Shown here: positions 3,607 to 62,433 of the stretch, one piece after another
Layout: the number at the start of each line of letters is the position of its first letter
Position numbering within the stretch: position 1 is the first letter of the stretch
IMG/VR virus record: IMGVR_UViG_3300045988_120282
Location: 70,940-134,939 of that record
Direction: 5' to 3' (one strand)
Source: a virus
Length of the DNA: 64,000 nucleotides
The notes under the pieces: generated by a model
Seen by the model: only the letters and a program-made list of their open reading frames with translations
Told to the model about the DNA's origin: nothing
Databases searched by the model: none
Program-made: the position numbers and the translations under genes

Positions 3607-3615
3607 GTGGAAATT

Positions 3616-3804: not shown

Positions 3805-3820
3805 AAAGTAGGTGGAAAGA

Positions 3821-4069
3821 ATGAGTCGCAGAACAACTATGGAATCATTAGCGTGTCACGTAGAACGCAAGTATCACACGTTATACTTTACGGAAAATCC
3901 TCCGAACGCTGGAATTGATGATAGCTTACATGGTTACAAATACTTCTTATTATTCAAGAACACGTTCGGAATTTTTCGGAAATACAGAACGCAAGAAGAA
4001 GCAATTAACGGCATGACGGAAATTTTAAAAGAAGATCCGTCAGAATTATTTAGTTACATAGCCAATTAA
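3821..4069 (+). CDS. hypothetical protein
   Basis: ORF; start at ATG after GTAGGTGGAAAGA. Confidence 0.5.
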   Translation: MSRRTTMESLACHVERKYHTLYFTENPPNAGIDDSLHGYKYFLLFKNTFGIFRKYRTQEEAINGMTEILKEDPSELFSYIAN

Positions 4070-4837: not shown

Positions 4838-5176
4838 ATGAAATCATATAAAGAATACGATAGAGAATTTATTGGGGATAGTGATATTGCGGCTTTAATT
4901 TTTGTAGGCACAACAAAAGACGGATTGAAGGCGAATATCTTAAATTTTGGTTGTGATGGAAGATATAATGCTTATATTGTGGATGAGAACGCAAAGATCG
5001 GAGATCACTATACCTTAGAGATGGAATTTGAAACATCATCAGGATTCAGGGCATGGCTCAAAATCTATGACGATGTAGGATTGATGGCAGATTATAAGGC
5101 AGACAAAATTAGAGTATATCGTGCTGGAGATTTTGGTTGCATTATTCAGCTTATCGGAAAGAAAGAATGTGAATAA
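4838..5176 (+). CDS. hypothetical protein
   Basis: ORF; start after AGGTGGAAATT context. Confidence 0.5.
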   Translation: MKSYKEYDREFIGDSDIAALIFVGTTKDGLKANILNFGCDGRYNAYIVDENAKIGDHYTLEMEFETSSGFRAWLKIYDDVGLMADYKADKIRVYRAGDFGCIIQLIGKKECE

Positions 5177-27183: not shown

Positions 27184-27780
27184 ATGGACGTTAATAAATT
27201 ATTGGTTGTCGTCGATATGCAGAATGATTTCATCGACGGAAGCCTTGGAACCAAAGAAGCACAGGAAATTGTTCCCAAAGTAATTGAGAAAATTAAAAAT
27301 TTTGATGGCATTATTGTAGCAACAATAGATACACATCACGAAGATTATTTTTCTACACAGGAAGGAAAGAAACTTCCAGTAAAACATTGCATTAAAGGAG
27401 AAGATGGTTGGCGATTCAATAAAAAAATTGCAAAGGAGTTATTATCATCTGAAATGTTTACAGAATATCATAAGCAAGAAAAAGGAATATATCTTTTAGA
27501 CACATATCGTAAAGAAACATTTGGGTCATTAGATCTTGCATGTGATTGTGAAGCTGAGTTTGGAGAAGGTAATAGATCTCACCCAGAAGATGTTGAAATT
27601 ACACTCATTGGTCTTTGTACAGATATTTGTGTAATCTCCAACGCAATGTTGTTAAAAACAACGTTACCAGAGGCAAAGCTTATTGTAGATGCATCGTGTT
27701 GCGCAGGTGTAACGCCAGAGAGTCACAAGAACGCACTTGAAGCTATGAAAATGTGCCAGATTGAAGTAATCAATGAGTAA
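27184..27780 (+). CDS. isochorismatase-family hydrolase, nicotinamidase (PncA)-like
   Basis: LLVVVDMQNDFIDG (catalytic Asp region) and LIGLCTDICVISNA (catalytic Cys) typical of PncA/isochorismatase fold. Confidence 0.75.
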   Translation: MDVNKLLVVVDMQNDFIDGSLGTKEAQEIVPKVIEKIKNFDGIIVATIDTHHEDYFSTQEGKKLPVKHCIKGEDGWRFNKKIAKELLSSEMFTEYHKQEKGIYLLDTYRKETFGSLDLACDCEAEFGEGNRSHPEDVEITLIGLCTDICVISNAMLLKTTLPEAKLIVDASCCAGVTPESHKNALEAMKMCQIEVINE

Positions 27781-27794
27781 AGGAGTGATGAAGG

Positions 27795-28631
27795 ATGATT
27801 ACTATTGGTGGAGTACCAGTTGTTCCAGAATCTTTTCCAGATGGAACACAGAAAATTGATTTACCGTTAGGAGCAATGAGATCACGGATTGCAGTAAATA
27901 AATTTGTATCAATTGAATGGCTGTATGAATCAGATAAAGAATTATTTTCGCTATATTGTATTTCAAAAAGTATTCGAGAATATTTCCCACATTTATCACA
28001 GTGTTTAGTGATGCCGTATATTCCGAATGCAAGATTTGACAGGGTTAAAGATCATAACGAATGTTTTACATTAAAATATTTTGCAGAAATCATCAATGAA
28101 TTAAATTTCAGAAAGGTCATCGTAGCAGATCCTCACTCAGATGTTTCTAAAGCATTGATTGATCACCTACAATATATACCAATTAAACTATATATTTCTA
28201 AGGTTTGCAATAAAGTCCTTAAAGCAGAACCATCAAGAAATCTTGTAATCTATTTCCCAGATAGCGGATCACTAAAAAGATATTCTGAATTTGTATCAGA
28301 TGATTATCCGATTGTCTATGGAATTAAAAATCGTGATTGGAAGACAGGCAAAATTCTTGGTATTGAGATTCATGGAGATACAGATAAATTAGATGAGAAT
28401 ACAGCAATTTTAATGATTGATGATATTTGTAGTAAGGGTGGCACATTCTACTACGGATCAAAAGAATTAAACAAATACGGTTGTAAAGATATGTATTTAT
28501 ATGTTAGTCACTGTGAAAATACAATTCTTGATGGAGAATTATTAAAGGAAGATAGTTTGTTTAAAAAAGTGTATACGACACGTAGTATTTTTACAAAAGA
28601 GCATGAGAAGGTTGAGGTGTTAGATTTATGA
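27795..28631 (+). CDS. ribose-phosphate pyrophosphokinase (Prs) homolog; candidate ADP-ribose pyrophosphokinase (Adps-like)
   Basis: Prs-family blocks VMPYIPNARFDR (vs PYYGYARQDR), VIVADPHS (vs IALDLHA), AILMIDDICSKGGT (vs AILIDDIIDTAGT); shorter and divergent relative to housekeeping Prs. Confidence 0.75.
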   Translation: MITIGGVPVVPESFPDGTQKIDLPLGAMRSRIAVNKFVSIEWLYESDKELFSLYCISKSIREYFPHLSQCLVMPYIPNARFDRVKDHNECFTLKYFAEIINELNFRKVIVADPHSDVSKALIDHLQYIPIKLYISKVCNKVLKAEPSRNLVIYFPDSGSLKRYSEFVSDDYPIVYGIKNRDWKTGKILGIEIHGDTDKLDENTAILMIDDICSKGGTFYYGSKELNKYGCKDMYLYVSHCENTILDGELLKEDSLFKKVYTTRSIFTKEHEKVEVLDL

Positions 28632-30097
28632 AACAGACAAATCCAATGTTATTAATTGATTTTTACAAAGCAGTCCATGCTGAAATGTTACCAAAAGGTA
28701 TTACAAAATCTGTTTCTTATTTTACTCCACGTATGAGCAGAGTAAAACGATGGAATGAAGTAGCCATGTTTGGATTACAAGGATTCATTAAAGAGTATTT
28801 GGTCGATTATTTTAATGAGTATTTTTTCTTTGAATATAGAAACAAAGCAATTGGTACTTATAAGACAGTAATGGATGCAGCTCTTGGAGAAGGTACATAT
28901 GGATTACAGAAAATCGAAGATTTATATGATCTTGGCTATCTTCCAATTGAGATTAAGGCTCTTCCTGAAGGAACTTTAGTACCAATGCATGTGCCGATGT
29001 TTAGTATTGAGAATACTCACAAAGATTTTGCATGGTTACCACAGGCATTAGAAAGTTTAATTTCAGCAGAAATGTGGCATCCGATGATAGCTGCGACTGT
29101 CGGGCATACATATAGACAGATCGTTAATAAGTTTTATGAAATGACTTGCGATGATGATATCCCAAAATCTAAGGCATTAGGGGCTTTCGATTTTCGTGGC
29201 GAAGAATGTTTACAGTCTGCGGTTAAAGCAGGGGCAGGATGGTGTTTATCATTCTTGAATACAGCAACAGTTCCAACAATTCCGTATTTAGAGAGAAATT
29301 ATAACTGTGATTGTACGAAAGAGCCAGTTGCTTTTGGTAGTCCGTCTACTGAGCATTCGGTTATGTGTAGTAATTATGCGATTGACGGAGATGAAGAGAC
29401 ACTGATTAAAAGATTGCTAACAGAGATTTACCCAAATACAAGCTTCTCCGCAGTGTTAGATTCTTATGATTATTGGAATGTTGTAGAGAATATTCTTCCA
29501 AAACTCAAGAATGAGATCATGAATCACAATGGATGTTTTCTTGTAAGAGGGGATTCAGGAGATTGTGTAGATGTAGTAACCAGAACAGTATTCAAGTTAT
29601 GGGAAGAATTTGGCGGAACTACGAATAGTAAAGGATACAAAGTATTAGATCCTCATGTAAAAGCAATTTATGGAGATTCAATTACAGTGCAGAGATGTGA
29701 GCAGATTTATGACATCTTAGAGAAAAATGGATTCGCAGCAAGCAATGTTGCACTTGGCGTTGGATCATTCTCATTTCAGTGTATCGAAGAAGATGGAGTT
29801 TTGAAACCATTTACAAGAGATACGTTTAGTAGTTGCATCAAAGCAACATATTGTGAGATTGATGGCAGACCATATCCGATTTTTAAGAATCCAAAAGATG
29901 GCGGATTTAAGAAATCTCAGAGAGGTTTATGTCATGTCTATAAAGGATCAGACGGCAAACTGACATTTAAAGATGAATATACTTCAGAAAATCTTCCAAT
30001 GAATAATTTGCTTGAGACGGTATTTAGAGACGGTAAATTGGTCAAAGAACAGTCATTACAGGAGATTAGAAGAGTGTTAAACGAAGGAGAATTTTAA
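28628..30097 (+). CDS. NAMPT-family phosphoribosyltransferase (NadV / Namat-like)
   Basis: Collinear with NAMPT over full length: LLIDFYKAVH, LPIEIKALPEG, FDFRGEE, PSTEHSV, VLDSYD, VRGDSGD, NSKGYKVLDPHVKAIYGDSI. Confidence 0.85.
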   Translation: MKQTNPMLLIDFYKAVHAEMLPKGITKSVSYFTPRMSRVKRWNEVAMFGLQGFIKEYLVDYFNEYFFFEYRNKAIGTYKTVMDAALGEGTYGLQKIEDLYDLGYLPIEIKALPEGTLVPMHVPMFSIENTHKDFAWLPQALESLISAEMWHPMIAATVGHTYRQIVNKFYEMTCDDDIPKSKALGAFDFRGEECLQSAVKAGAGWCLSFLNTATVPTIPYLERNYNCDCTKEPVAFGSPSTEHSVMCSNYAIDGDEETLIKRLLTEIYPNTSFSAVLDSYDYWNVVENILPKLKNEIMNHNGCFLVRGDSGDCVDVVTRTVFKLWEEFGGTTNSKGYKVLDPHVKAIYGDSITVQRCEQIYDILEKNGFAASNVALGVGSFSFQCIEEDGVLKPFTRDTFSSCIKATYCEIDGRPYPIFKNPKDGGFKKSQRGLCHVYKGSDGKLTFKDEYTSENLPMNNLLETVFRDGKLVKEQSLQEIRRVLNEGEF

Positions 30098-30114
30098 GAG
30101 AGGAGATATAAAAC

Positions 30115-30885
30115 ATGAGTTTTAATGCAGCAGAAACCAAAGACAGATTAGTACAGTGGATTAGAGATTGGTTTAAAGTTAATGGAAGATGGTGTAATGC
30201 CGTTGTAGGAATTTCAGGCGGTAAAGATTCATCAGTTGTCGCTGCCTTATGTGTCGAAGCACTAGGTAAAGATCGAGTTATTGGAATTATGATGCCACAG
30301 GGTGTGCAGAGTGATATTGAGTATTCTCAGATGCTATGTGATCATCTAGGAATTGAACATTACACAGTTAATATTTTTAATGCTTGCAGAGATATTAAAC
30401 ATGAAATCAGAGATGAATTAGGCGGTAAATGGAGTAAACAGAGTGCCACAAATTTACCTGCTCGTATCCGAATGGCTACATTGTATGCTTTTGCACAGAG
30501 TATGAATGGAAGAGTAGCAAATACATGTAATTTATCTGAAGATTGGGTCGGATATGCAACAAGATATGGAGATTCAGCCGGAGATTTTAGTCCATTAAGT
30601 GATCTGACTGTGACAGAAGTTAAAGCAATTGGTAGAGTTCTGGGACTTCCAACAGAGTTAATCGAAAAAACACCTACTGATGGATTATGCGGTAAGACAG
30701 ATGAAGATAATCTTGGATTTACATATGATATGTTAGACGAATATCTGAGAACTGGAGTATGTAAAGATGAAGCAGTGAGACAGATCATTGACGAGATGCA
30801 TGAGAAGAATGTATTTAAACTTGCTCCAATGCCTAAATTTATATCTGGCATGTGGATCGAGGCAGGAATGGAGTTGGATGATTAA
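30115..30885 (+). CDS. nadE: NH3-dependent NAD+ synthetase
   Basis: PP-loop VVGISGGKDSSVVAALC and overall NadE length/architecture. Confidence 0.85.
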   Translation: MSFNAAETKDRLVQWIRDWFKVNGRWCNAVVGISGGKDSSVVAALCVEALGKDRVIGIMMPQGVQSDIEYSQMLCDHLGIEHYTVNIFNACRDIKHEIRDELGGKWSKQSATNLPARIRMATLYAFAQSMNGRVANTCNLSEDWVGYATRYGDSAGDFSPLSDLTVTEVKAIGRVLGLPTELIEKTPTDGLCGKTDEDNLGFTYDMLDEYLRTGVCKDEAVRQIIDEMHEKNVFKLAPMPKFISGMWIEAGMELDD

Positions 30886-33536: not shown

Positions 33537-33630
33537 ACTGGCATTTTATGACTCTATAAAACACAATATATAGTGATTATCCAATTATTGAACCACTATA
33601 TATAGTTGTATAAAGTGCCAGTCATGGAAA
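33537..33630. repeat. large nested inverted repeat upstream of tRNA
   Basis: Outer arms AACTGGCATTTTATGAC / ATAAAGTGCCAGTCAT; inner arms CACAATATATAGTG / CACTATATATAGTTGT. Confidence 0.45.
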
Positions 33631-33763
33631 CATAGCTCAGTTGGTAGAGCAGGCAATACATAAACATTCATTTTTCTACCTCCATATAAGTATTTTTATT
33701 TATTTACATTTAATTTTCATCACATATAAATTGCCGACACAGGTTCGATTCCTGTTGTTTCCA
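33626..33763 (+). tRNA. tRNA gene interrupted by an ~67-nt AT-rich insertion in the anticodon loop (anticodon region CAT?)
   Basis: 5' half GGAAACA-TA-GCTC-AGTTGGTA-GAGC-A-GGCAA (33626-33656) and 3' half TTGCC-GAC-ACAGG-TTCGATT-CCTGT-TGTTTCC-A (33731-33763) form perfect acceptor, D, anticodon and T stems; loop begins TACATAA; no encoded CCA. Confidence 0.5.
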
Positions 33764-38567: not shown

Positions 38568-38888
38568 ATGGGAGCCAATATTGAGTTTGCCATTGGCTAT
38601 GCGATCGGGTTTTGTATCGTTGGAGCGATTGTATTCCTGAGATACGAAAGAAAGATGGATCGGATGAGGCAGACAAATGTAAGTTTGATCTTAGATAAGA
38701 TGTCATTCATGGCTGATGCGAACGACAAAGAAAATGGTACATATAATAAGGAAGAAACTCGTTCAGATGTTAAGGACGCAGTGAAGTATGCAATGAAGAA
38801 AAGTCATCCAGATAATGGTGGCAGTGCAGATGATTTTAGAAAATTTAGAGAGCTTTATGAAGAAATGGAAGGTAAGACTCATGAGTAA
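38568..38888 (+). CDS. membrane-anchored J-domain-like protein (HPD motif)
   Basis: N-terminal TM helix IEFAIGYAIGFCIVGAIVFL; C-terminal AVKYAMKKSHPDNGGSADDFRKFRELYEEM resembles J-domain helix II-III with the invariant HPD tripeptide. Confidence 0.45.
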   Translation: MGANIEFAIGYAIGFCIVGAIVFLRYERKMDRMRQTNVSLILDKMSFMADANDKENGTYNKEETRSDVKDAVKYAMKKSHPDNGGSADDFRKFRELYEEMEGKTHE

Positions 38889-39547: not shown

Positions 39548-39621
39548 AAACTAAGAAGGGCTATGAAAACAACAGTATTGAAAACTGTCTAAATCATTAT
39601 AAATCAGCACAACAATTATTT

Positions 39622-40251
39622 ATGGAACTGTATAATACAGGGGATCTTTACTTGATAGGCGGAGCCCCAAGAGAATTTTTAGAAACAGGCAACATTAAAG
39701 ATGCAAAAGATATTGACGTTGTGATTGATACAAAAGAAACAGATAAGTTTGATGCAGTTTGTAAAAAATATCATGCCAGAAAGAACTTTTTTGATGGATA
39801 TAAAATTACCTACCATGACATTGTTGTTGATGTATGGAGAATAGAGCAAACATGGGCATATAGAGAGAATATCATTAACTGTTCTGAAGAAGATTATCTA
39901 AAGAATTTACCTTTTACTGTATTTTTCAACTTAGATTCTTTAGTGTACGACATAAAAAGAAACGTATGGTATGATGAGCTTTATATAAAGGCAAAGGAAA
40001 GCAATACATTAGATATTGTATTAGAAGAAAATCCACATATTGATCTAAATATTTTGAGGGGAATGATTTTTCAAAACAGATATCATATGAAATATTCTAT
40101 TCGTCTTAAAGAGTTGATCTTGGATCACTATAAGAAAGAGAGAGAATATGAAAAGATACTGCATGACATTCAATTTAAACGATATAAGAAAGAAATTTTG
40201 TCTTTGAATGATATTAAAAATCAATTGGATTATATCTTTTCAAAAAGATAG
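39622..40251 (+). CDS. nucleotidyltransferase with polyA-polymerase/CCA-enzyme head-domain motif
   Basis: YLIGGAPREFLETGNIKDAKDIDVVIDT aligns with the GGaVRD...DiD head motif of CCA-adding/polyA polymerases; only ~209 aa; no obvious RBS so start uncertain. Confidence 0.6.
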   Translation: MELYNTGDLYLIGGAPREFLETGNIKDAKDIDVVIDTKETDKFDAVCKKYHARKNFFDGYKITYHDIVVDVWRIEQTWAYRENIINCSEEDYLKNLPFTVFFNLDSLVYDIKRNVWYDELYIKAKESNTLDIVLEENPHIDLNILRGMIFQNRYHMKYSIRLKELILDHYKKEREYEKILHDIQFKRYKKEILSLNDIKNQLDYIFSKR

Positions 40252-40301
40252 ATTAGTAGATGTTTGTATATAAACAGAGAAATGAGAAGGAGGACTAAAG
40301 A

Positions 40302-41255
40302 ATGAAATGTTTTTATCATGTGGATCAAGACGGAATCGTGTCTGGATTCTACGTCAGAAAAGCTTGCGAACAGCGAGGCTTGGCATTTGAACCAGAGGAC
40401 TTTCGAAAAATTAATTACGGTATGAAATTCCCGTTTCATGACATTGAGCAGGATGAATTTGTGTTTATTGTAGACTACAGTATTGAGCCAGAAGAGATGT
40501 GGCAGTTGCTCAGTATTACAAAGAATGTATTTTGGATCGACCATCATCAGTCTACGATTGAAGCGTATAAAGATTTCAAGTGTGATGTAAAAGGAATCAG
40601 AATTACTGGAGCGGGTATTTCAGGAGCGAATTTGACATGGTTATATTTTAAATATATGTGTGATGAAAATTGGGAGCAAATTGAGAGGACGGATGAGAAA
40701 AATGTAAAAAGATTACTCAATATATATAAATATAAAGCAGATTATCCAAAACTGGTAGAATATACAGCCATGTGGGATACATTTTATTTTGGTGAAACGT
40801 CAAAACAATTCGTAAAAGCATTTCACTATGCATTTGAATCGTATGATTTTGATGCGTTAAGTCCTTTGCTAAACACGTTAAATAAAGATCAAGGAATTTA
40901 TGAAGCAGCAAAAATTATTGGTGATATGATAGCAGATGGCTTATCAATTATTGAGTATTTAGCAGCAAATGCAGAACAATATCTTAGAGCATATGGTTTT
41001 GAAACCATATTTGAAGGGCATAAAGTCTATGCAATCAATCGAGCATTAATCAATTCTGATTTCTTCGAATCTATTGACGCTTCTAAATACGATATGTTCA
41101 TCGGTTTTTCATTCAATGGAAGTATGTGGGAATACCAGCTACGATCCGCAGAACAGGATAAAGTAAATGTGTATGAGCTTGCTGTGAAATATGGTGGTGG
41201 CGGTCATCCAAATGCAGCTGGGTTCAGAAGTGATAAATATGTGTTAGGAGTGTGA
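40302..41255 (+). CDS. DHH/DHHA1 phosphoesterase (NrnA-like nanoRNase / pAp / cyclic-oligonucleotide phosphodiesterase family)
   Basis: HVDQDGIVSG (H-x-D-x-DG-x-S), IDHHQS (DHH) and C-terminal GGGGHPNAAGF (DHHA1 GGGH). Confidence 0.8.
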   Translation: MKCFYHVDQDGIVSGFYVRKACEQRGLAFEPEDFRKINYGMKFPFHDIEQDEFVFIVDYSIEPEEMWQLLSITKNVFWIDHHQSTIEAYKDFKCDVKGIRITGAGISGANLTWLYFKYMCDENWEQIERTDEKNVKRLLNIYKYKADYPKLVEYTAMWDTFYFGETSKQFVKAFHYAFESYDFDALSPLLNTLNKDQGIYEAAKIIGDMIADGLSIIEYLAANAEQYLRAYGFETIFEGHKVYAINRALINSDFFESIDASKYDMFIGFSFNGSMWEYQLRSAEQDKVNVYELAVKYGGGGHPNAAGFRSDKYVLGV

Positions 41256-41258
41256 TGT

Positions 41259-42044
41259 ATGTCAAGGAAAAATACAAGAGAAATTGAACTTGCTTTTAGT
41301 AAACACAGAGATCCAGATTGGGAAGCCGATGTTGAAATTTATGGTAAAAGAGTTTTAAAAACAGTTCGTGGTATTTGTCTTGGAGATGAATGGACGGAAA
41401 TTGATTCATTGAAAAATAAAGATTGGATTGAGCTGTCAGATATGTTTGGTAATTTTGACAATCATAATCCCTATTTCAATCATAACCCACAATATGTTTT
41501 ATTGGATAAATTCTCTATAACATCTCCTGCGATATTGTGTAGCAATGAAATAGTTATGAAAAATGGCAAAGTTTTGAGTGTTAATAATATATCAGCAAAT
41601 CTATCAGGCGAAAAGGAGGTATACAAGATTTATTCAAATACGAAATATGATGATTATACATATTATGATGAATCAAAAAATTTAGTATTTGAATTAGCAT
41701 CAAAAGATGTTGATAAGATAATCCGATTTATGAGAGATTTTATGGATGTATTGCGTGACAGTAAGTTAACAAAGTATAGAAATAGTAGTTTTTTATGGAG
41801 ACTATTTAACACTCTTGATATGCCATATTTTAAACAAACATATTCCATGAATGATTTGAAAAAATATACAAACACATTTAGATCCGAGGTTTGTGGTCAA
41901 CTAAAAGAAACTATTCCTAATTTTAAATATACTGGAGTTCCAATGGGCGGGTATATTGAAAGATATTTTGAATTAAGCTATGTAGAGGAAGTACAAAAAT
42001 TCATTAAAGAACAGGAGGATAAAAAATGTGAAGAAATTAAATGA
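41259..42044 (+). CDS. hypothetical protein
   Basis: ORF with RBS TAGGAGTG. Confidence 0.5.
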   Translation: MSRKNTREIELAFSKHRDPDWEADVEIYGKRVLKTVRGICLGDEWTEIDSLKNKDWIELSDMFGNFDNHNPYFNHNPQYVLLDKFSITSPAILCSNEIVMKNGKVLSVNNISANLSGEKEVYKIYSNTKYDDYTYYDESKNLVFELASKDVDKIIRFMRDFMDVLRDSKLTKYRNSSFLWRLFNTLDMPYFKQTYSMNDLKKYTNTFRSEVCGQLKETIPNFKYTGVPMGGYIERYFELSYVEEVQKFIKEQEDKKCEEIK

Positions 42045-42561
42045 TGAACAGCGAAAGCTGATTGAAGATAATTATTCTTTAATTTGGCATTTACATGAAA
42101 AATATTTTACAAAGTTTACAGATTTTGATACATATATGGATCTTGGTCGTATGGCAATTTGTAAAGCAGCATTAAAATGGGACGAGTCTAAAGGAACTTT
42201 TGGTACATATCTCTTCTGGGTATTACGTTCAGAAGTGAATCAATATTATACAAAATGGCACAGACCAACAGAAAAAATGAATAGGAATGCTGAATCGTTA
42301 GATACGCCATTGGCAGGATATGAACCAGAAGATGATATTACAATCGGAACAACACTGATGAGTGGGGATAACGTAGAAGATGAGGTGCTTACAAAGGTAC
42401 ATTTTCAAAATGAGTTTGATAAATTGGCACCGAGAAATAAAAAGATTATCACGTTAAAGCAGAAAGGTTTAACACAAAGACAAATTGCAAGTCAGCTTGG
42501 AATCACTCATCAGTGGGTTAGTCAAAATATTGTACAGTTTAAGAAAGCATTATGTGGATAA
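42028..42561 (+). CDS. sigma-70-family RNA polymerase sigma factor (region 2 + region 4)
   Basis: GTG start behind AGGAGG; LIWHLHEKYF..YMDLGRMAICKAALKWDESKGTFGTYLFWVLRSEV (region 2) and LTQRQIASQLGITHQWVSQNIVQFKKAL (region 4 HTH). Confidence 0.8.
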   Translation: MKKLNDEQRKLIEDNYSLIWHLHEKYFTKFTDFDTYMDLGRMAICKAALKWDESKGTFGTYLFWVLRSEVNQYYTKWHRPTEKMNRNAESLDTPLAGYEPEDDITIGTTLMSGDNVEDEVLTKVHFQNEFDKLAPRNKKIITLKQKGLTQRQIASQLGITHQWVSQNIVQFKKALCG

Positions 42562-43680: not shown

Positions 43681-44209
43681 ATTAATAAAACGCCCACGTT
43701 CTGATAACGATAAATATACTAAATATGATGTTGTGCTTGATAAAGAATATACTGTAGAAGAATTTATTGATGCGATTGCAGATGGAAGAAATGGAACGCA
43801 TGGTCAAATTACAATAAAAAATGATAAAGAAGCCATTGAATCACTTGTCTATAATATCGAGAGTATTGATTATAGACATTGTGTACTTCAAAATGCTGAA
43901 GAAAAAATTAAACAAGTATGGGCATATGGTAGCTGGTTAAAAATCAATTATACTATTTTACTTGAAAATAAAAAGGAAACACAAAAAGGTGCGCTCAGAT
44001 TTATTGTTAAGAAACCAGATGGAGAAGAATCAGTGGTTGTTATTTTTAGGAACAAGTCAGATGGCACATATTCATTTGTTAATTTGACCAAAGAGCATAT
44101 TTGTTCATGTAAATTTAAGACAATTGAGGAAGCGATTCAGGATATGAATGATCGACTAAGAAAAGGATTGATTGAGTCCTATGTTGTGAAAGGAGAAATG
44201 AAACAGTGA
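43673..44209 (+). CDS. hypothetical protein
   Basis: ORF; start at ATG behind GTAGGTGA. Confidence 0.5.
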   Translation: MFKLIKRPRSDNDKYTKYDVVLDKEYTVEEFIDAIADGRNGTHGQITIKNDKEAIESLVYNIESIDYRHCVLQNAEEKIKQVWAYGSWLKINYTILLENKKETQKGALRFIVKKPDGEESVVVIFRNKSDGTYSFVNLTKEHICSCKFKTIEEAIQDMNDRLRKGLIESYVVKGEMKQ

Positions 44210-44676
44210 GTAATGTATTTCAGATTTATTTAGCAGGCGGTATGCAGGATTTATCGTTTGAAGAGCAGAATGCTTGGAGAGAAAGAATTTGCAATCAAAT
44301 TATTGCTATGCGTAGGATTCTTAATGTTAATATGAAAGAAGTTAATATTATTAACCCTGTTGATTATTACAATTTTCAAACAGAGTTGCATGATACAGAA
44401 AAAGAAGTAATGAGATTTGATACAAATTTTGTTAGAAATAGTGATCTTGTTGTAGTAAATGCGAATGATCCGAAAAGCATTGGTACATCTATGGAGATTG
44501 CAATTGCATATGAACGTCATATTCCTGTACTGGTTTTGAATACAGAAAAGAAAAGATTACATGCTTGGTGGGTGCAAATGTCTGACAAGATATTTGACGA
44601 TGAGAAAAAATTATGTACATATATATATGATTTTTATCTTAAGATGGGTCATTGTAGTATTCGAGCATGGGTGTAA
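44206..44676 (+). CDS. nucleoside 2-deoxyribosyltransferase / Rcl (DNPH1)-like protein
   Basis: N-terminal IYLAGGMQDL and later acidic MEIAIAYERHIPVLVL fit the Rossmann-like deoxyribosyltransferase/Rcl pattern (YLAGp ... E..A); tentative. Confidence 0.5.
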   Translation: MSNVFQIYLAGGMQDLSFEEQNAWRERICNQIIAMRRILNVNMKEVNIINPVDYYNFQTELHDTEKEVMRFDTNFVRNSDLVVVNANDPKSIGTSMEIAIAYERHIPVLVLNTEKKRLHAWWVQMSDKIFDDEKKLCTYIYDFYLKMGHCSIRAWV

Positions 44677-48603: not shown

Positions 48604-49143
48604 ATGTCGTTGAAATTAAATGACGAACAGAGAAAATTGGTAGAACAAAATCATAATTTGATTTACTCTGCTATGACAAAATGCGGTATCCGCAGACAAG
48701 ATTTTGATGACTATTATGGATTCGCTGCTATTGGGTTGTGTAAGGCAGCAATTGATTATGATGAATCCAAAGCTAAATCATTCTCTACATATGCATATAA
48801 ATGTATGCAAAAAGAAATTATAGCATATACTCGATGGAGATTTGCAGATAAAAGAGATGAACGACTTACCTTATCGTACAATCAGTTAATGAATGATTTA
48901 GATGAAGACGAAAAAGAATATTCTTTTTTGCTAGCTGATAAAAAAAATAATGAAAAAAAATTAATTTTCTTTTTGTGTTTTGATGAGCAAATGCGAATAC
49001 TAAATAATAAGGACAGGTTAATTATTAATTTAAAGGCAAAAGGGTATACGAACGAAGAAATAGGAAATACCCTTGGTGTTACATATCAAGCAATTCAATA
49101 TCAATTGAAAAAAATTAAAAATAAATTAATCCCATCCTTATAA
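48604..49143 (+). CDS. sigma-70-family sigma factor (paralog of 42028-42561)
   Basis: N-term MSLKLNDEQRKLVEQNHNLIY parallels MKKLNDEQRKLIEDNYSLIW; region 4 HTH YTNEEIGNTLGVTYQAIQYQLKKIKNKL. Confidence 0.75.
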   Translation: MSLKLNDEQRKLVEQNHNLIYSAMTKCGIRRQDFDDYYGFAAIGLCKAAIDYDESKAKSFSTYAYKCMQKEIIAYTRWRFADKRDERLTLSYNQLMNDLDEDEKEYSFLLADKKNNEKKLIFFLCFDEQMRILNNKDRLIINLKAKGYTNEEIGNTLGVTYQAIQYQLKKIKNKLIPSL

Positions 49144-55176: not shown

Positions 55177-56925
55177 GTGCCAGAAATTTTAAGAAATAGA
55201 GGGATTGATGATTATGAAACGTATTTGAACCTCGATGATAGCGTAATTCAAGATTATGCTGATTTAGAGGGTATCAAAAATGCAGTAAATACAACGATTT
55301 TTGCACTTGAAAATGGACATAAAATCGGTATTTTAATTGACGAGGACGTAGACGGATTTTGCTCGGCTTCGATGGCATATATGTACTTAAATCGCATTAA
55401 TAATGAACTTTATGATGGTAAGAGTAACATTTGTTACTTATTACATAAAAAAGCAAAAGCTCATGGATTAAGTGAAGATATTACTATACCTGAAGACGTG
55501 AAACTTCTAATAATTCCAGATGCAGGCACCAATGATGTAGCACAATGTACAGAACTTGTAAATCGTGGCGTACAGATTGTAATTCTTGATCACCATGAAA
55601 AAGAAGAATCTGAAATTAAAATGCCAGAGGAAGTTGTAATTGTAAATAACCAGTGCAGTCCACGCTATAAGAACAAAGACTTATGTGGGGCAGGCGTTGT
55701 TTATAGATTTTTGCAAGCAATGGATGACGAATTATGGATCAATTATGCTGATGATTATTTAGATTTATGTGCATTAGCGAATATCGGTGATGTCATGGAT
55801 ATGAGATCATTTGAGACACGTCGATTAGTGGATAAAGGGCTTCAGAATATTCAGAATAAATGCTTTAAAGCACTAATTCAGGCACAAGATTATTCAATGC
55901 ATAGTATTGTTAATATCCATAATGTTCAGTGGTATATCGTTCCAATTATCAATGGTATGGTACGATTTGGTTCTTTGAAAGATAAAGAATTAGTTTTTAG
56001 AGCATTTATTGAAGACTATGAGGTATTTGACTATAAGAAAAGAGCAACAAAAAACAACCCTGCGGAAGTAATCAAAGAGAATATTTACGATCGTGCCGCT
56101 CGATTATGCAAAAATGCTAAAGGCAAACAGGATCGTCAAAAGAAAAAGATGGTTCCGATTATTATGAAAGAGGCAGAAAAAGATAAAGATAGTAAGATTA
56201 CTATTCTTGATGTTACAGAAACATTAGATAGCAGTTTGACAGGATTGGTTGCTATTAAGATTGCTGAAGATATGAACAGACCATGTTTGTTATTACGAAA
56301 ACATATTAATCCAGAAACAGGATTAGTAGAAATGAGTGGTAGTGCAAGAAATGTAGACCATAGCCCGATTGATAGTTTGAAAGATGTGATATCCGAAACA
56401 AATTCATTTTTATGGGCAAAAGGTCACGCCAATGCATTTGGATGTTCGACAGATAATATCTCTGGAGCACTCACAGAATTAAACGACAAGCTGAAAGATA
56501 TTAAATATGATTCAACTTATAGAGTTGATTTCATTGTAGATGCTTGTAGATTAGATTTTGAACTACTACAGGAAATGTCTAAATTGGATGATATTCGCGG
56601 GCAGGGCATTGATGATCCGATGATTGCTGTCGAGAATATCACATTAAATAAGGAAGAAATTAATGTTGTTGGTAAGAAAATGGATACAATGCAATTCAAG
56701 ATTAATGATATTCCATGCGTGATGTTTAGATGTAATGAAAAAAATAAGATTTATGATTGGATTATGAATGATTTTTCTGACGAAGGCACAGTTACATTTG
56801 AATTAGTAGGAACTGCACAGACTAATATCTTTAACGGAATTAGACAATATCAAATTGCGGTTGATGATATTAATGTTCTGAGCATCACAACAGATGAAGA
56901 ATTAGACGAAGATATTTGGGATTGA
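55177..56925 (+). CDS. RecJ-like DHH-family ssDNA exonuclease
   Basis: IGILIDEDVDGFCS (DxD) and VILDHHEKE (DHH); start is GTG without RBS, while a strong RBS+ATG at 55160 opens a 10-codon ORF in another frame. Confidence 0.7.
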   Translation: MPEILRNRGIDDYETYLNLDDSVIQDYADLEGIKNAVNTTIFALENGHKIGILIDEDVDGFCSASMAYMYLNRINNELYDGKSNICYLLHKKAKAHGLSEDITIPEDVKLLIIPDAGTNDVAQCTELVNRGVQIVILDHHEKEESEIKMPEEVVIVNNQCSPRYKNKDLCGAGVVYRFLQAMDDELWINYADDYLDLCALANIGDVMDMRSFETRRLVDKGLQNIQNKCFKALIQAQDYSMHSIVNIHNVQWYIVPIINGMVRFGSLKDKELVFRAFIEDYEVFDYKKRATKNNPAEVIKENIYDRAARLCKNAKGKQDRQKKKMVPIIMKEAEKDKDSKITILDVTETLDSSLTGLVAIKIAEDMNRPCLLLRKHINPETGLVEMSGSARNVDHSPIDSLKDVISETNSFLWAKGHANAFGCSTDNISGALTELNDKLKDIKYDSTYRVDFIVDACRLDFELLQEMSKLDDIRGQGIDDPMIAVENITLNKEEINVVGKKMDTMQFKINDIPCVMFRCNEKNKIYDWIMNDFSDEGTVTFELVGTAQTNIFNGIRQYQIAVDDINVLSITTDEELDEDIWD

Positions 56926-56936
56926 GGTGAAAGTTA

Positions 56937-59900
56937 GTGAGCAGTTCATTACATACACATTCGCATTATTCATTGTTAGATGGATATGCATTACCTGAAG
57001 AAAACTTACAAAGAGCAGAAGAGATAGGACTAAAAGCCCTGGCTATCACAGAACATGGCAATGAGTATAGTTGGTGCTATTATGATAAGCTTCATGAGAA
57101 ATATCCAAGTGTTAAATTGATTTTTGGAGTTGAATTTTATGAATGCTTTGATATGACAGAACAGAATAAGGATAGCAAATATTTCCATTTAATTGTATTA
57201 GCAAAGAATGAGAATGGTAGAAAAGCAATTAATCAATTGGTAACTGATTCAAATTTTCATGGATTTTACTATAAGCCACGAATTGATCTGAATGCGTTGA
57301 AACCATATGCTAAGGATCTGGTTGTGAGTAGTGCTTGTTTAGCATCTAAACTTGCCAGAGAGCCAGATTATCAGAAATGTGTTAAATATGTTCGTGAATA
57401 CAAAGAGATTTTTCCACATTTTTATTTAGAAATGCAGTCACATTCACATCAGGATCAAATGGTATATAATCAGAAAATCTTACAGCTTTCAGTAGACACT
57501 AATACACCATACATTATCACAACTGATAGTCACGCTGCTAGAAAAGAAGATCTGTATTATCAGAACTGGCATGTAAAGCTTGCTCACGATACTGAAACCG
57601 CAGCAGAAATTTATGAAGGATGTTATTTACAATCTGACGATGAAATTCATGCAATTATGGATAACCAAATTGGAGAAGACGCAGTAACTAAAGGACTTGA
57701 AGAAACTGATAGGATTGCAGATTTAATTGATGAAATTCACATGCCATTTCAGGCACCTCAGTTACCATCTTTCCCATTACCAGAAGGATTTGAAGATAAT
57801 TATTCTTATTTAAAGTATCTGATTGATACAGGGTGGGTAAAACGAGGATTCGATAAATTACCAGAAGATGAGCAGAAACTCAGAAAAGAAAGAATTGATT
57901 ATGAGTTAGATATTATTCATTCAATGGGATTCGATGGATACTTCTTGATTGTTTGGGATTTTATCAATTTTGCAAGAGAAAATGGTATTCCAATTGGTGC
58001 TGGTCGAGGTAGTTGTGCAGGTAGTTTGGTGTGTTACACGATTACAATTACAGACTTAGATCCTATCAAATATGGACTGATTTTTGAAAGATTTTTAAAT
58101 CCAGAACGAATTTCAATGCCAGATACAGATACAGATGTTGGTACACGAGATGAGATTATCCAATATTTGATCGATAAGTATGGCGAAAACAGAGTATGCC
58201 AGATTATCAATTTCAGTTTTATTACTCCAATTGTGGCAATCAAAGATGTTGGCAAGGTTTTAGGGTTCAATTATCACGAGATGGACAAACTAAGTAAAAA
58301 ATTTGTATATGACACGATTGAAGAATCTTTATGGAATAACAGAGATTTAGCAGAGAATCCAAGATATGAAGAGCTTTTTGACGTTGCATCTCATCTTGCA
58401 GGTAGAGTAAAAACAGTATCTTCTCATGCAGGTGGTGTTGGAATTGTAGATACAGATATTAGCGATTATATGGCAATGAAACTTGGAACTGATGGAGAAC
58501 ACGTCATCCAAGTAGATAAACGTATCGTTGAAGAGATTGGGATTATTAAATTTGATATTTTGGGTGTTGCTACATTGAACACTGTAAAAGAAGCCGAAAT
58601 TGACGCAGGGTTAACTGAGTTTGATGTAAATATTAACAATCCAAAGTTTGAAATGGATAAAGGATCATATGAATTATTGCGTAGTGCAATGACGAATGGT
58701 GTTTTCCAGGTCGAAAGTGCTGGTATGAAGGATTTGCTGGTTAGGTTACAAGTCTCAAACATGGAAGAGTTGGCAGCTGTATTAGCACTGTATAGACCAG
58801 ATGCAATGGATGTTTTAGAAGAATTCATTGAGTATAAACATCATCCAGAGAAAATTGCATATATCCATCCAGATATGGAGCCAATCTTAAAGGAAACGTA
58901 TGGATGTATGATTTATCAGGAGCAATTACTTGATATTGTTCGTAAATTTGGTGGTCGAAGTTATGGAGGAGCTGACTTATTCCGTAAGGCGATTGGTAAG
59001 AAGAATATTGAACTTGTAAAGTCTGAATCTAAAAAGCTTTATTACGAGATTATTGAGAATGGATACCCCGAAGAAATTGCAAAACAGATTAGCGAGACAT
59101 TATCCCAAAAAGGGGGATACTTATTCAACAAAAGTCATGCGTACTCCTACGCTGTATTATGCTTACAAACAGCGTTTTTAAAGAAACATTATGCGTTGTG
59201 TTTTTTTAAGGCATTATTGAATCGCAATAAAGATAAGGCAGGAATGGTAAATAAATATATTCTTGATGCTAAGGCGTTTAAGATTCAAGTGTTACCACCA
59301 AACTTAAACAAATCAATGATGAATTTCAGTATTGACGATGTGTATATATTGTTTGGATTATCGGCTATCAGTGGCATTGGAGAAAAAATTGCAAAGGTAA
59401 TTCTTGAAGACCGTGATAAAAATGGTAAATTCATAGGATTTGAAAACTTTTGCGAACGTATTAATCCAAGTAAATCACAGGTTATTCAGTTGATCAAAGC
59501 AGGTGCAATTCCAACAAAGAATAAGCGTAAAACTTTAATTCAGTATTTGAAATCTATGTATCAGCCAACAACATTCAAGCCAGTTGCAAAAGCACCGAGT
59601 TACAAACAATTACTTATTAAATGGGATATTGACGCTGAAGATTACCGTATAGGTGAGAAGAAATATGATTACGACAAAGATGCAATATTGAAAGTTTATA
59701 ACGATAAAAAGTATGAATTGTACAAAGATAAGGAAAAAGAACGATTTCAGAAATTTATCGCACAGAATCAAAAATATCTTGAGAATGAAGATTTTTGGGA
59801 ATTTGAAGCATTGCAAATCTTTATCAACGATAACCCATTTGATCAGGCATACAAGTATATGTCAAAACAATTTCAAGATGTTGAAAATGGAGATGATTGT

Positions 59901-60170
59901 ACTGTGGTTGCAGTGATCGCTAAAGTTGATAAAAAGAAAGACAAAAATAAAAAGACATTTGCGTATGTGAATTTATATTCTAGTTTTGGATTGACTGAGG
60001 CAATCGTCTGGCATTCGCAATTAAAAGAATATGAAGATATGATTACCAAAGGAAATCAGATTGCGATGTTATGCAGAAAAGATTCAGAAGAGAAGGTTAT
60101 CGCAAAGAAAATTAAACCATATAAACAATGGCTAGAAGATATTAAGAAAGTGAAGGGGGTTGTCGCCTAA
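56937..60170 (+). CDS. dnaE: DNA polymerase III alpha subunit (DnaE-type)
   Basis: PHP N-terminus LHTHSHYSLLDGYALPEE; length and collinear Pol III alpha architecture. Confidence 0.9.
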   Translation: MSSSLHTHSHYSLLDGYALPEENLQRAEEIGLKALAITEHGNEYSWCYYDKLHEKYPSVKLIFGVEFYECFDMTEQNKDSKYFHLIVLAKNENGRKAINQLVTDSNFHGFYYKPRIDLNALKPYAKDLVVSSACLASKLAREPDYQKCVKYVREYKEIFPHFYLEMQSHSHQDQMVYNQKILQLSVDTNTPYIITTDSHAARKEDLYYQNWHVKLAHDTETAAEIYEGCYLQSDDEIHAIMDNQIGEDAVTKGLEETDRIADLIDEIHMPFQAPQLPSFPLPEGFEDNYSYLKYLIDTGWVKRGFDKLPEDEQKLRKERIDYELDIIHSMGFDGYFLIVWDFINFARENGIPIGAGRGSCAGSLVCYTITITDLDPIKYGLIFERFLNPERISMPDTDTDVGTRDEIIQYLIDKYGENRVCQIINFSFITPIVAIKDVGKVLGFNYHEMDKLSKKFVYDTIEESLWNNRDLAENPRYEELFDVASHLAGRVKTVSSHAGGVGIVDTDISDYMAMKLGTDGEHVIQVDKRIVEEIGIIKFDILGVATLNTVKEAEIDAGLTEFDVNINNPKFEMDKGSYELLRSAMTNGVFQVESAGMKDLLVRLQVSNMEELAAVLALYRPDAMDVLEEFIEYKHHPEKIAYIHPDMEPILKETYGCMIYQEQLLDIVRKFGGRSYGGADLFRKAIGKKNIELVKSESKKLYYEIIENGYPEEIAKQISETLSQKGGYLFNKSHAYSYAVLCLQTAFLKKHYALCFFKALLNRNKDKAGMVNKYILDAKAFKIQVLPPNLNKSMMNFSIDDVYILFGLSAISGIGEKIAKVILEDRDKNGKFIGFENFCERINPSKSQVIQLIKAGAIPTKNKRKTLIQYLKSMYQPTTFKPVAKAPSYKQLLIKWDIDAEDYRIGEKKYDYDKDAILKVYNDKKYELYKDKEKERFQKFIAQNQKYLENEDFWEFEALQIFINDNPFDQAYKYMSKQFQDVENGDDCTVVAVIAKVDKKKDKNKKTFAYVNLYSSFGLTEAIVWHSQLKEYEDMITKGNQIAMLCRKDSEEKVIAKKIKPYKQWLEDIKKVKGVVA

Positions 60171-62433
60171 AGTGGTGGATAGTACAAAAGAATATGAGTT
60201 TGAGATTGTCCCATTATATCAGATTTATTATAATGAAGAATCTTTATTTGGGATTTACACATTCTGTACAGCAGAAGATTTACCAGAATGTAAACCATAT
60301 AATAATAATGATTTTGATGACTTATCCGATAAAAAAATGAATAAATGTGGCAAATTGGTTGGTAATATGCAGGAGTTGTATTTAGGAACGAAATATAAGG
60401 TTAAAGCCAATATGACATATTCTAAGAAATACAATGAATACCAATATAAACCACTTTCTATAGTTGCTGAAGTTCCTAAAACTTTTGAAGCACAAAAGGT
60501 ATTTTTAAAAACACAGACGAACGCAGTGATCGCAGATCAGTTAATTGCGAAATATCCTAATGTTGTTGAAGATGTAATGAATGGTCAGTTAGAGATGATT
60601 GACCATTCAGAAATCAAAGGACTAGGAGATAAAACTTGGAAGAAGCTTAGAGATAAAATTATTAAAAACTATGTGATTTCTGATATTGTTGTAATGTTGC
60701 AACCATATGGGGTTACGTTACCAACGATTGAAAGATTATTGAAATCCGAACCTAATCCAAGTGTTTTAAAAAAACAGATTGAACAAAATCCATATATACT
60801 AACTAGGGTAAAGGGCATGGGCTTTAAACGAGTTGATGATATTGCGCTCAAATTAAAACCAGAATTGCGATGCTCAAATCAACGGTTAAACGCATTTATT
60901 TCTTACGACTTGCATCAAGTTGGTGATAATGATGGACATACATATGTGTATATCAAAAATTTAAGAAGCAATATTAGTAATGCAGCGTCTGAATGCTTAC
61001 CTATATTTGACGAATGGTTTGATGAAGAATCAGATAAAAAATTACCAAATTATTTATATACATCTGGAGATAAAATTGGTCTGAAATCGTATTATAAAAT
61101 TGAAATGGATATTTACGAATTTATTAAAGATATGGAGAAATATTCATTTGGAAATACAACAGATTACGAACCAATAACAGATAGTGAGATTAGTCAGACG
61201 ATTTCTGAAGTTGAAGATGAAGAAGGGTTTATGTTTTCAGAAGAACAAATTACAGGAGTTAACAAAGCATTAAATTGCCAAGTTGTGTTTATTTCTGGAG
61301 AAGCTGGAACTGGTAAAACAACAATTCTGAAACCAATTATTAAATGCTACCAAAAAAGAAATAATAGCATTGTTGCGTGTGCTTTATCTGCAAAAGCAGC
61401 CCAAAGAATTAAAGAAGCAACAGGCTTAGACTCACGGACTATTCATAGGTTACTTGTAGCAGAAGGTATTGATAGTTTTTGTTATAACCAAGATAACCCA
61501 TTACCTGCTGATGTAGTAATCATGGATGAAAGTAGCATGACAAATGCGAGCCTTTTCTATAATTTTTTATTGGCAATTCGACCAGGAACACGATTAATTT
61601 TTTGTGGTGACTATATGCAGTTGCCACCGATTGGATTTGGTAATATTTTCTCGGATCTGTTGAAAAAGAAAGGTTTAAATAGTGTACAGCTTACCAAACC
61701 GATGAGACAAGCAGAAAAATCTGGTATTTTAACGGATGCAAGAAAGATTCGCAGAGGGATTAATCCATTGGATAGCCCACAATTAAAAATTGTTCATGGT
61801 GAACTAAATGATATGTTTTATTTGTTCAGGAAGAATAGAGAATCATTGTTCAATATGGCAGTAAAGCAGTATATCAAATCTGTCAAAGAGGAAGGGCTTG
61901 ACAATGTTGTGATTATTTCTCCACGAAGAAGTAATTGTACGAACAGCACAGATGAATTGAACAAAGCAGTACAGAAAGAATTATTTGCTAGTAGTAACAA
62001 ACCATTTGTTGAATTCAAAGATCGTAAATACTATTTAGGAGATAAGGTATTACAGACTTCAAATGATTACGAGCGAGATGTATTCAATGGTGATATTGGA
62101 TACATTACAGAGATTGACAAAGAAAAAGAAATATGTTTGGTGTCTATGAATGCAAATATTGAAGAAAAGCTGATTGAATATTCTTTCGCTCAGTTAGGAC
62201 AACTGCAATTAGCATATGCATTAACCACGCATAAACTTCAAGGATCAGCTGCGCAAACTGTGATCGGTATTATTGACAATACACATTACAAATTGCTTGA
62301 TAACTGTATGTTATATACAATGTTGACACGAGCTAAGAAAAGATTTGCACTCCTTGCAGAGCCAGAAGCGTTTAAGAGATGTATTATGACAAATCATAAT
62401 AAGAGGCGCACTTGGTTAAGCCTAAAAAATTAA
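60160..62433 (+). CDS. RecD-like (SF1) DNA helicase
   Basis: Walker A VFISGEAGTGKTT, Walker B VVIMDESSM, motif VI YALTTHKLQGSAAQ; start uncertain (TTG 60160 or GTG 60172). Confidence 0.8.
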   Translation: MSPKVVDSTKEYEFEIVPLYQIYYNEESLFGIYTFCTAEDLPECKPYNNNDFDDLSDKKMNKCGKLVGNMQELYLGTKYKVKANMTYSKKYNEYQYKPLSIVAEVPKTFEAQKVFLKTQTNAVIADQLIAKYPNVVEDVMNGQLEMIDHSEIKGLGDKTWKKLRDKIIKNYVISDIVVMLQPYGVTLPTIERLLKSEPNPSVLKKQIEQNPYILTRVKGMGFKRVDDIALKLKPELRCSNQRLNAFISYDLHQVGDNDGHTYVYIKNLRSNISNAASECLPIFDEWFDEESDKKLPNYLYTSGDKIGLKSYYKIEMDIYEFIKDMEKYSFGNTTDYEPITDSEISQTISEVEDEEGFMFSEEQITGVNKALNCQVVFISGEAGTGKTTILKPIIKCYQKRNNSIVACALSAKAAQRIKEATGLDSRTIHRLLVAEGIDSFCYNQDNPLPADVVIMDESSMTNASLFYNFLLAIRPGTRLIFCGDYMQLPPIGFGNIFSDLLKKKGLNSVQLTKPMRQAEKSGILTDARKIRRGINPLDSPQLKIVHGELNDMFYLFRKNRESLFNMAVKQYIKSVKEEGLDNVVIISPRRSNCTNSTDELNKAVQKELFASSNKPFVEFKDRKYYLGDKVLQTSNDYERDVFNGDIGYITEIDKEKEICLVSMNANIEEKLIEYSFAQLGQLQLAYALTTHKLQGSAAQTVIGIIDNTHYKLLDNCMLYTMLTRAKKRFALLAEPEAFKRCIMTNHNKRRTWLSLKN

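Follow-up and report, generated by a model that had tools for sequence, protein, structure and literature searches.

A phage-borne orphan CloB-like nucleotidyltransferase beside a core DHH/DHHA1 phosphoesterase gene, and its possible action against Clover defence

Genes at the locus and fold of the nucleotidyltransferase

The DNA analysed here is a 64,000-nucleotide stretch of a viral genome (IMG/VR record IMGVR_UViG_3300045988_120282, positions 70,940 to 134,939; the window hereafter). The locus studied, window positions 39622-41255, carries the gene of a small nucleotidyltransferase (NTase) followed by that of a DHH/DHHA1 phosphoesterase. The window is AT-rich (33% GC) and its plus strand bears almost every long open reading frame (ORF). 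Both ORFs of the locus, which had been described in an earlier note made from the letters alone, were confirmed at 39622-40251 (209 amino acids, aa) and 40302-41255 (317 aa), on the same strand and separated by a gap of 50 nucleotides. The features of the locus are as follows.

39564..39593, plus strand: remnant of the 5′ end of the original NTase gene (ATG, eight codons and TAA; MKTTVLKTV and stop), placed by sequence and frame
39622..40251, plus strand: orphan CloB-like mini class II nucleotidyltransferase, 209 aa, head and neck only
40287..40293, plus strand: AAGGAGG ribosome-binding site of the DHH gene, 8 nucleotides upstream of the start codon
40302..41255, plus strand: stand-alone DHH/DHHA1 phosphoesterase, 317 aa, core gene of the phage group

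Homologues of the NTase and the DHH protein were retrieved from many independent assemblies with expectation (E) values of 1e-132 and 1e-213 respectively, so neither ORF is due to chance. When 7.5 kilobases (kb) around the locus were compared by blastn with 50,697 deposited phages, only a single match of 84 nucleotides was obtained.

Residues 13-18 of the NTase read GGAPRE and residues 30-34 DIDVV. The earlier note had taken these for the head motif of CCA-adding enzymes and poly(A) polymerases in a protein of half the usual size, and the motif positions, the predicted fold and the structural matches bore this out. The AlphaFold2 model, built with 16 homologues (predicted local distance difference test score, pLDDT, 91; predicted template modelling score 0.85), ends after the neck helices. 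In Foldseek searches all significant Protein Data Bank (PDB) matches of the model were class II tRNA nucleotidyltransferases or the Escherichia coli poly(A) polymerase. The matches (E about 1e-7) aligned the whole query with the head and neck of the targets, at a template modelling (TM) score of about 0.63 when normalised by the query and of 0.3-0.4 by target length. The same class II enzymes were found by sequence with a profile of 61 family members (A2; E 2e-4); a narrower profile of the phage clade (A1) gave only noise against the PDB, and the broader one was required. PF01743 was matched by 18 of the 61 members at E<=0.01, and the window NTase alone gave no match in Pfam (E<=0.1), PHROG, NCBIfam or PADLOC.

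Across the 61 diverse family members R17, D30, D32, G59, D70 and W72 are invariant. Motif A corresponds to G13-G14-x-x-R17 and the catalytic carboxylates to D30, D32 and D70, the last lying opposite the E of 'LEFAT' in 1VFG in the alignment; thus all three carboxylates, whose loss the earlier note had named as one point on which its reading could fall, are retained. The family carries the motifs N55xF57xG59, T99-V-F-x-N103 and D131xxxE135xN137P138, of which the DxxxExNP motif is family-specific and precedes motif D. In the profile alignment to 1VFG/4WBY, motif B (RRDxTxNA) has become P97-F98-T99-V-F-F-N103, with N103 alone retained, and this change removes the arginines and the aspartate that read the ribose 2′-OH. 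Motif D (EDPVR) lies opposite I140-D141-(gap)-L142-N143, the base-templating R being replaced by the near-invariant N143.

The NTase was compared with the Aquifex aeolicus A-adding enzyme (1VFG/4WBZ), the Thermotoga maritima CCA enzyme (3H39) and E. coli PcnB (3AQL). Like them, it folds into a head and neck, carries GGxxR[DE]...DxD as motif A and a third carboxylate, and retains both the N of motif B and, in motif D, the LR-A/G helix. It differs from them in having half their length, with none of the body and tail domains that bind tRNA or RNA in full enzymes of about 350-480 aa, in the replacement of RRD by xxT and of EDxxR by x[D/E]LN, in its own DxxxExNP motif and in a score under the Pfam threshold.

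A dGTPase partner and the assignment to CloB

The NTase family comprises 1,553 representatives at 50% identity in a full HMMER scan, almost all of 225-260 aa. Its gene neighbourhoods were sampled at 33 loci of GTDB genomes (L019-L051) and 12 IMG/VR loci. The GTDB loci came from Lachnospiraceae, Oscillospiraceae, Robinsoniella, Hungatella, Acetivibrio, Desulfosporosinus, Brevibacillus, Oceanobacillus, Sphingobacterium, Saccharibacteria and many Proteobacteria. Beside distant members of the family an HD protein of 450-530 aa recurs directly upstream. When three such HD proteins were used in tblastn searches, a match to this deoxyguanosine triphosphatase (dGTPase) was found directly upstream of the NTase gene in 33/33 GTDB loci, and it was full length in 27 of them. 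Partial matches of 254-293 aa were seen at L044, L049 and L051, the first two abutting the start of the locus, and at L020, L030 and L040 the dGTPase is reduced to remnants of 32-128 aa. The linkage was also present at L004, L005/6, L015, L017/18, L057, L060, L061 and L063.

At two loci from Lachnospiraceae/Hungatella the NTase homologue stands amid housekeeping genes, after a 32-49-aa remnant of the dGTPase C-terminus (L020 3771-3902, L030 3810-3905); here the dGTPase gene was deleted and the NTase gene kept.

The HD partners are dGTP triphosphohydrolases (PADLOC dGTPase, E 1e-71 to 1e-74; NCBIfam NF002205, 425-467 bits). Their best PDB matches were 9p8s, 9p8t, 9p8u and 9p8v ('dNTP triphosphohydrolase', 473 aa, 8 chains each), with E values of 7e-149 for a Lysobacter partner (L041) and 5e-73 for a Clostridial one (L005). 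Other dGTPase structures reached E values no better than 1e-50.

An operon of a deoxynucleoside triphosphate (dNTP) hydrolase and an NTase has been described as the anti-phage system Clover (Yamaguchi et al., bioRxiv 2025.07.09.663793 / PMC12265719), present in >650 genomes of Proteobacteria, Bacillus, Clostridia and Myxococcia. According to this work (PMC12265719), CloA is an octameric dGTPase activated by deoxythymidine triphosphate (dTTP), which is high during phage replication. CloB makes p3diT (pppdTpdT, 5′-triphosphothymidyl-3′5′-thymidine), which binds CloA and suppresses its activity: with 20 uM p3diT the dTTP needed to activate CloA rises from about 15 uM to >200 uM, and CloA is toxic when active CloB is missing (PMC12265719). 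With an offset of +2, the chain residues of 9p8s-9p8v reproduce T25, R29, R34, D37, R38 and F41 of the CloA described in PMC12265719, from which we infer that these entries are Salmonella CloA.

The CloB active site is defined there as the Pol-beta type pattern [D/E]h[D/E]...h[D/E]h (PMC12265719). The window NTase carries this pattern as D30-I-D32 and V-D70-V, both invariant in its family, and like CloB it is a small stand-alone Pol-beta-type NTase. Its bacterial homologues (25-45% identity) lie, as CloB does, directly downstream of a CloA-matching dGTPase, and the phage-clade profile A1 detected the CloA-linked NTases at E values of 1.8e-97 (Clostridia) to 5e-28 (Proteobacteria). The two families also share their taxonomic spread over Clostridia, Bacilli and Proteobacteria. 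On these sequence grounds the window NTase is assigned to the CloB family. The window protein differs from CloB in being phage-encoded, without a CloA in the 64-kb window, and truncated at its N-terminus, and its product is a prediction. The characterised E. coli Clover operon was sought by blastn with a Morganella locus among 5,426 E. coli genomes, which gave no match; a tblastn search of plasmids with a proteobacterial CloB-like protein returned hypothetical proteins only. The CloB-like annotation can now be extended to about 1,500 clusters of 230-aa proteins labelled 'hypothetical'.

The replacement of D by T99 in motif B and of R by N143 in motif D would fit a dNTP/thymine substrate, not CTP/ATP. 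The changes would thus be compatible with the joining of two dTTP molecules and not with the extension of tRNA by CTP/ATP, and the family may resemble half a CCA enzyme because it has been shaped for dTTP joining instead of tRNA extension.

A complete CloA-CloB operon was also found inside a conjugative element (L017/L018, 3547-5693), flanked by a Phd/ParE toxin-antitoxin pair on one side and by DpnD-PcfM, relaxase and type IV secretion genes on the other. Clover is thus carried by conjugative elements too.

The phage orphan and its proposed role

With three CloA homologues as tblastn queries, no CloA was found in the window below E 0.4, nor at L001, L011-14, L016, L052-56, L058/59 or L062. 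CloB without CloA is carried by the window and by at least three other phage lineages. When 45 NTases were placed in a neighbour-joining tree, the window clade, made up entirely of orphans (window, L052, L011 and L056), was nested among Clostridial CloA-linked CloBs. The orphans from the phage-like contigs L001, L016 and L062 branched apart from it, and these separate branches indicate that CloB was captured more than once. The closest bacterial homologues are from Lachnospiraceae (45% identity), which suggests gut Clostridia as hosts of the phage. An intact NTase homologue gave no tblastn match among the 50,697 deposited phages.

The NTase shows a ratio of nonsynonymous to synonymous substitution rates (dN/dS) of 0.10-0.31, and its body of 209 codons is undamaged, with no invariant residue lost. 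In L052-L055 the NTase ORF differs from that of the window at 1-2 of 630 nucleotides, against 13-41 differing codons in the DHH gene next to it. This contrast suggests an accessory cassette that has recently spread horizontally beside an older core gene.

These results were read as two independent genes that happen to be neighbours: a CloB captured by the phage without its partner, which would disarm Clover, and a core DHH hydrolase of short oligonucleotides. We regard this reading as about evenly poised between right and wrong. The further proposal, that phages acquired CloB from Clover repeatedly and use it to forge the host's inhibitory 'all-clear' nucleotide and so lock CloA off, is offered more tentatively. 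During infection the phage NTase would make p3diT or a close relative from dTTP. The phage-made inhibitory dinucleotide would raise the dTTP threshold for activation of the host CloA, which would stay off while phage replication lifts dTTP. dGTP would then remain available for phage DNA synthesis, and Clover would be disarmed.

Phage proteins that interfere with nucleotide immune signalling are already known (Acb1, Apyc1, Acb2/Acb4 and Tad1/2), and no sequence or fold relationship of these to the proteins of the locus was found. They remove activating signals, whereas the mechanism proposed here would add an inhibitory one. If true, the phage would encode the synthase of a negative immune signal, a counterpart in reverse to the phage nucleases and sponges. 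Clover (2025) is among three recently described defences restrained by an inhibitory nucleotide, and the weak point of such defences is an invader that produces the inhibitor itself. No report of an inhibitory immune nucleotide made by a phage was found in the accessible literature, and phage-encoded CloB goes unmentioned in the text of the Clover preprint (PMC12265719). The CloB kind itself is known since 2025; what is new is the phage-borne orphan.

Several observations weigh against this role. The CloB identity derives from operon linkage to CloA, not from a direct comparison with the CloB proteins characterised in Salmonella and E. coli. In Clostridial CloA, R29, D37 and R38 of the p3diT pocket are kept but T25, R34 and F41 have given way to I25, A34 and G41, and with the pocket kept in part the signal in Clostridia may differ from p3diT. 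The proposed effect would require a host that carries Clover. Orphan CloB genes beside CloA remnants in bacterial chromosomes show that orphan status can arise by neutral loss.

The start of the gene is a further such point. A frameshift of 1 nucleotide truncates the 5′ end of the NTase gene, and about 22 N-terminal residues are lost. A GAAGG ribosome-binding site precedes ATG 39564 of the remnant, and the upstream continuation of the NTase frame reads ...CLNHYKSAQQLF-MELYN, where intact homologues of 228-235 aa begin MKTTVLKYLNYHKLAQQLF-MELYD. No obvious ribosome-binding site lies in front of ATG 39622, which makes it a weak translation start. The same frameshift is present in the independent IMG/VR contigs L052 and L053, and L011 carries an independent TAA nonsense codon at the equivalent place (about 4950-5003). 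The N-terminal lesions and the missing ribosome-binding site could mean decay.

The NTase might therefore be a non-functional fragment of a Clover operon, gained by recombination and now being lost. Its absence from most relatives of the phage agrees with such decay, as do the lesions and the bacterial orphans beside CloA remnants. However, the intact body with all its invariant residues and the low dN/dS argue against it. Full-length intact copies exist in the related phages L056, L064 and L065, and the near-identity of the NTase beside more divergent DHH genes suggests recent spread and not old junk. Both lesions (window 39564-39625 and L011) remove the same N-terminal helix of about 22 residues and spare the conserved internal Met. 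On balance decay is considered unlikely, although it is the explanation that survives best after the proposed capture of CloB.

The CloB-like enzyme might instead signal elsewhere than to host CloA, to another phage or host effector or a dNTP enzyme, or in the control of lysogeny or superinfection. In L065 a nucleoside 2-deoxyribosyltransferase-like gene (3586-3990) immediately precedes the NTase, the window has such a gene 4 kb downstream, and these genes may take part in manipulation of the dNTP pool. The window also encodes an integrase and a PemK toxin. However, the phage copies of the NTase share no conserved neighbour, and every sampled bacterial locus is tied to CloA or to a CloA remnant. 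A purpose of this kind appears rather more doubtful still than decay.

The DHH phosphoesterase and the rest of the window

The earlier note had assigned all DHH/DHHA1 signatures to the 317-aa gene, and its motifs, its match to PHROG 4771 ('DHH phosphoesterase', E 5e-36) and its two-domain fold upheld this. The motifs are HVDQDG (6-11), D58, DHH (80-82), D159 and GGGGH (298-302); among 33 DHH homologues H6, D8, D10, D58, D80-H81-H82, D159 and G298-H302 show no variation or almost none. The label 'NrnA-like' given to the protein in the same note proved non-specific. The model (pLDDT 91.7) matched TM1595, NrnA/Pde2, PggH, GdpP and RecJ about equally in Foldseek (E 2e-9 for TM1595, NrnA and PggH), and the NrnA equivalog NF053633 of NCBIfam scored 15.9 bits against a cutoff of 350. 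The best PDB sequence match to NrnA (E 0.06) covered the GGGH region only. Pfam DHH and DHHA1 both fell under their gathering scores (20.6 against 28.1 and 21.5 against 25.9). A further label, NrnB (COG2404), was carried only by the homologues P0043 and P0104, as annotated by the Joint Genome Institute; the DHH protein ends 15 residues after GGGGH and so lacks the C-terminal extension of clade-A NrnB.

With the stand-alone DHH/DHHA1 enzymes NrnA/Pde2, TM1595, PggH, Rv2837c/CnpB, DhhP and NrnB/COG2404 the protein shares the DHH and DHHA1 fold, the four DHH motifs, GGGH and a length of about 300-320 aa. It differs in being 10-16% identical to any solved member and in reaching no NCBIfam equivalog, and RCRLRSK of Staphylococcus aureus NrnA corresponds to EYQLRSA. 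Among deposited phages its relatives are encoded mostly by jumbo phages and annotated 'DHH phosphoesterase'. Those of Pseudomonas phage EL, Caulobacter phage CcrColossus and Brevundimonas phages likewise fall in PHROG 4771 and in large genomes. The window clade, which stems from metagenomes of the human gut, is only 22-28% identical to these and shows linkage to a sigma factor.

The protein most likely hydrolyses short oligo- and dinucleotides to mononucleotides, in nucleotide salvage or the clearance of nanoRNA, a function proposed with low confidence. Bacterial NrnB enzymes that have been tested act on short RNAs from their 3′ ends and leave c-di-AMP intact (PMC12709177). The window's DHH protein is judged to belong, with nothing unusual about it, to a phage family that is known though uncharacterised, and not to be functionally coupled to the NTase.

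The earlier note had proposed the NTase and DHH genes as a pair. The adjacency was confined to one sub-lineage (window, L052-55 and L064), and the conserved partner of the NTase is the CloA-type dGTPase. The DHH gene has >450 homologues, many 80-90% identical, on contigs of 80-316 kb, compared with 33 word-index matches for the NTase. The close relatives L007 and L008 keep the ORFs of 194, 112 and 106 aa upstream, and downstream the sigma factor, RlaP, an 89-aa ORF, the deoxyribosyltransferase-like gene and PcfJ. They retain the DHH gene without the NTase, whose place is taken by a 350-nucleotide gap or a TnpB insertion. The DHH gene is a core gene of the phage group, with a synteny common to L007, L008 and L064. 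Its adjacency to the sigma factor holds even in L009, where the DHH protein is 46% identical and the sigma-factor homologue follows directly, without an NTase. The AAGGAGG before its start codon gives the DHH gene a strong translation start of its own.

NTase homologues (25-69% identity) adjoin unrelated genes: a non-DHH gene of 317 aa and TnpB in L011-14, the same 317-aa gene in L065, a RecD2 helicase and an S26 peptidase in L001-3, and two uncharacterised genes in L016, with TerD genes about 2 kb downstream. That the NTase and DHH genes adjoin is incidental and reflects a variable insertion slot directly upstream of the DHH gene.

The 317-aa neighbour in L011-14 and L065 was also considered as a divergent DHH protein and rejected (hhalign probability 0.2%, no Pfam match). 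TnpB/Cas12f-like genes (OrfB_IS605) were seen at L008 2386-3984, in the place of the NTase upstream of the DHH gene, and at L011 2710-4290, just upstream of the NTase in L011-14.

The earlier note had further suggested that the two proteins jointly degrade or sponge second messengers of cyclic-oligonucleotide-based anti-phage signalling (CBASS), Pycsar or type III CRISPR systems. Nucleotide-based immune signalling has been kept as a theme, in the form of the inhibitory signal of CloB and Clover; the removal of activating messengers found no support, the NTase being by homology a synthase of an inhibitory signal (CloB, PMC12265719). In favour of joint action are the same-strand adjacency with its short gap and the ability of DHH/DHHA1 enzymes to cleave cyclic di- and oligonucleotides (cited in PMC7824862). 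Iyer et al. 2021 (PMC7824862) also speculated that jumbo-phage DHH proteins counter cyclic-nucleotide signalling. However, the adjacency is missing from close relatives and from every more distant homologue of either gene, the DHH gene has its own ribosome-binding site, and tested NrnB-type enzymes leave c-di-AMP uncut. Nothing was found that connects the DHH protein with signals of CBASS, Pycsar or type III systems, and neither it, the NTase nor four NTase homologues matched PADLOC-DB. If indiscriminate on dinucleotides, the DHH protein would, if anything, destroy a p3diT-like product and so oppose the NTase, not help it. Joint degradation is thus considered improbable.

The last suggestion, a minimal CCA- or A-adding or repair enzyme for phage tRNAs without an encoded CCA, is the least probable of all. 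Among solved structures the fold comes closest to CCA- and A-adding enzymes, and 2.3 kb downstream there is a gene for an NTase of the RNA-repair type (RlaP), but RRD and EDxxR are replaced, the tRNA-binding body and tail are absent, the family is tied genomically to a dGTPase and not to tRNA or RNA-repair genes, and the scan of window ORFs revealed no RNA ligase. Where a tRNA gene encodes no CCA, the CCA-adding enzyme of the host normally supplies it.

The tRNA on which this suggestion drew does lack an encoded CCA, as had been said, but it is 5.9 kb upstream of the NTase and not close by. This tRNA-like gene has intact acceptor, D and T arms and a 67-nucleotide AU-rich insertion in the anticodon loop, because of which default ARAGORN misses it. 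In intron mode ARAGORN reports anticodon AUA and the insertion at position 32/33. Its 3′ end is ...UUUCC-A-CUA, followed by a terminator-like hairpin. In L064 (786-922) the element, including the insertion, is 94% identical to that of the window, and the upstream flank diverges.

Other features of the window are as follows.

27184-27780, plus strand: isochorismatase/nicotinamidase-like, first gene of a nicotinamide adenine dinucleotide (NAD)-related cluster (27184-30885 overall)
27795-28631, plus strand: ribose-phosphate diphosphokinase-like, NAD-related
28628-30097, plus strand: NAMPT/NAPRTase-like, NAD-related, overlaps the preceding gene by 4 nucleotides
30115-30885, plus strand: NAD synthase
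33626-33763, plus strand: tRNA-like gene (Rfam RF00005, 46 bits)
38568-38888, plus strand: 106-aa ORF with a J-domain-like 'HPD' motif (KKSHPDNGGSADDF), from reading of the sequence only
42028-42561, plus strand: sigma-70-family factor 1, syntenic with the DHH gene even in L009
42575-43408, plus strand: RlaP-family ('RNA ligase-associated Pol-beta') nucleotidyltransferase (Pfam E 7e-25)
44206-44676, plus strand: nucleoside 2-deoxyribosyltransferase-like gene
48604-49143, plus strand: sigma-70-family factor 2
55177-62433, plus strand: replication block
55177-56925, plus strand: probable RecJ-like DHH protein, DHH motif at residue 138; placement of Pfam DHH/RecJ_OB on this ORF inferred
56937-60170, plus strand: 1077-aa ORF, probably the Pol III alpha-like polymerase, the Pfam match being placed on it by size
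60160-62433, plus strand: 757-aa ORF, probably the RecD2-like helicase, the Pfam match being placed on it by size

The ribose-phosphate diphosphokinase-like (Prs-like) and NAMPT-like genes form a pair which we take to resemble the phage NARP1 pathway of NAD+ reconstitution that counters NAD-depleting defences. The NTase was considered as the missing NadD of the NAD cluster and ruled out by its Pol-beta fold, NadD having a HIGH-motif Rossmann fold. Replication is served by the probable RecJ-like DHH protein, which is separate from the 317-aa one. Even L009 keeps the 106-aa ORF with the HPD motif upstream of its DHH gene.

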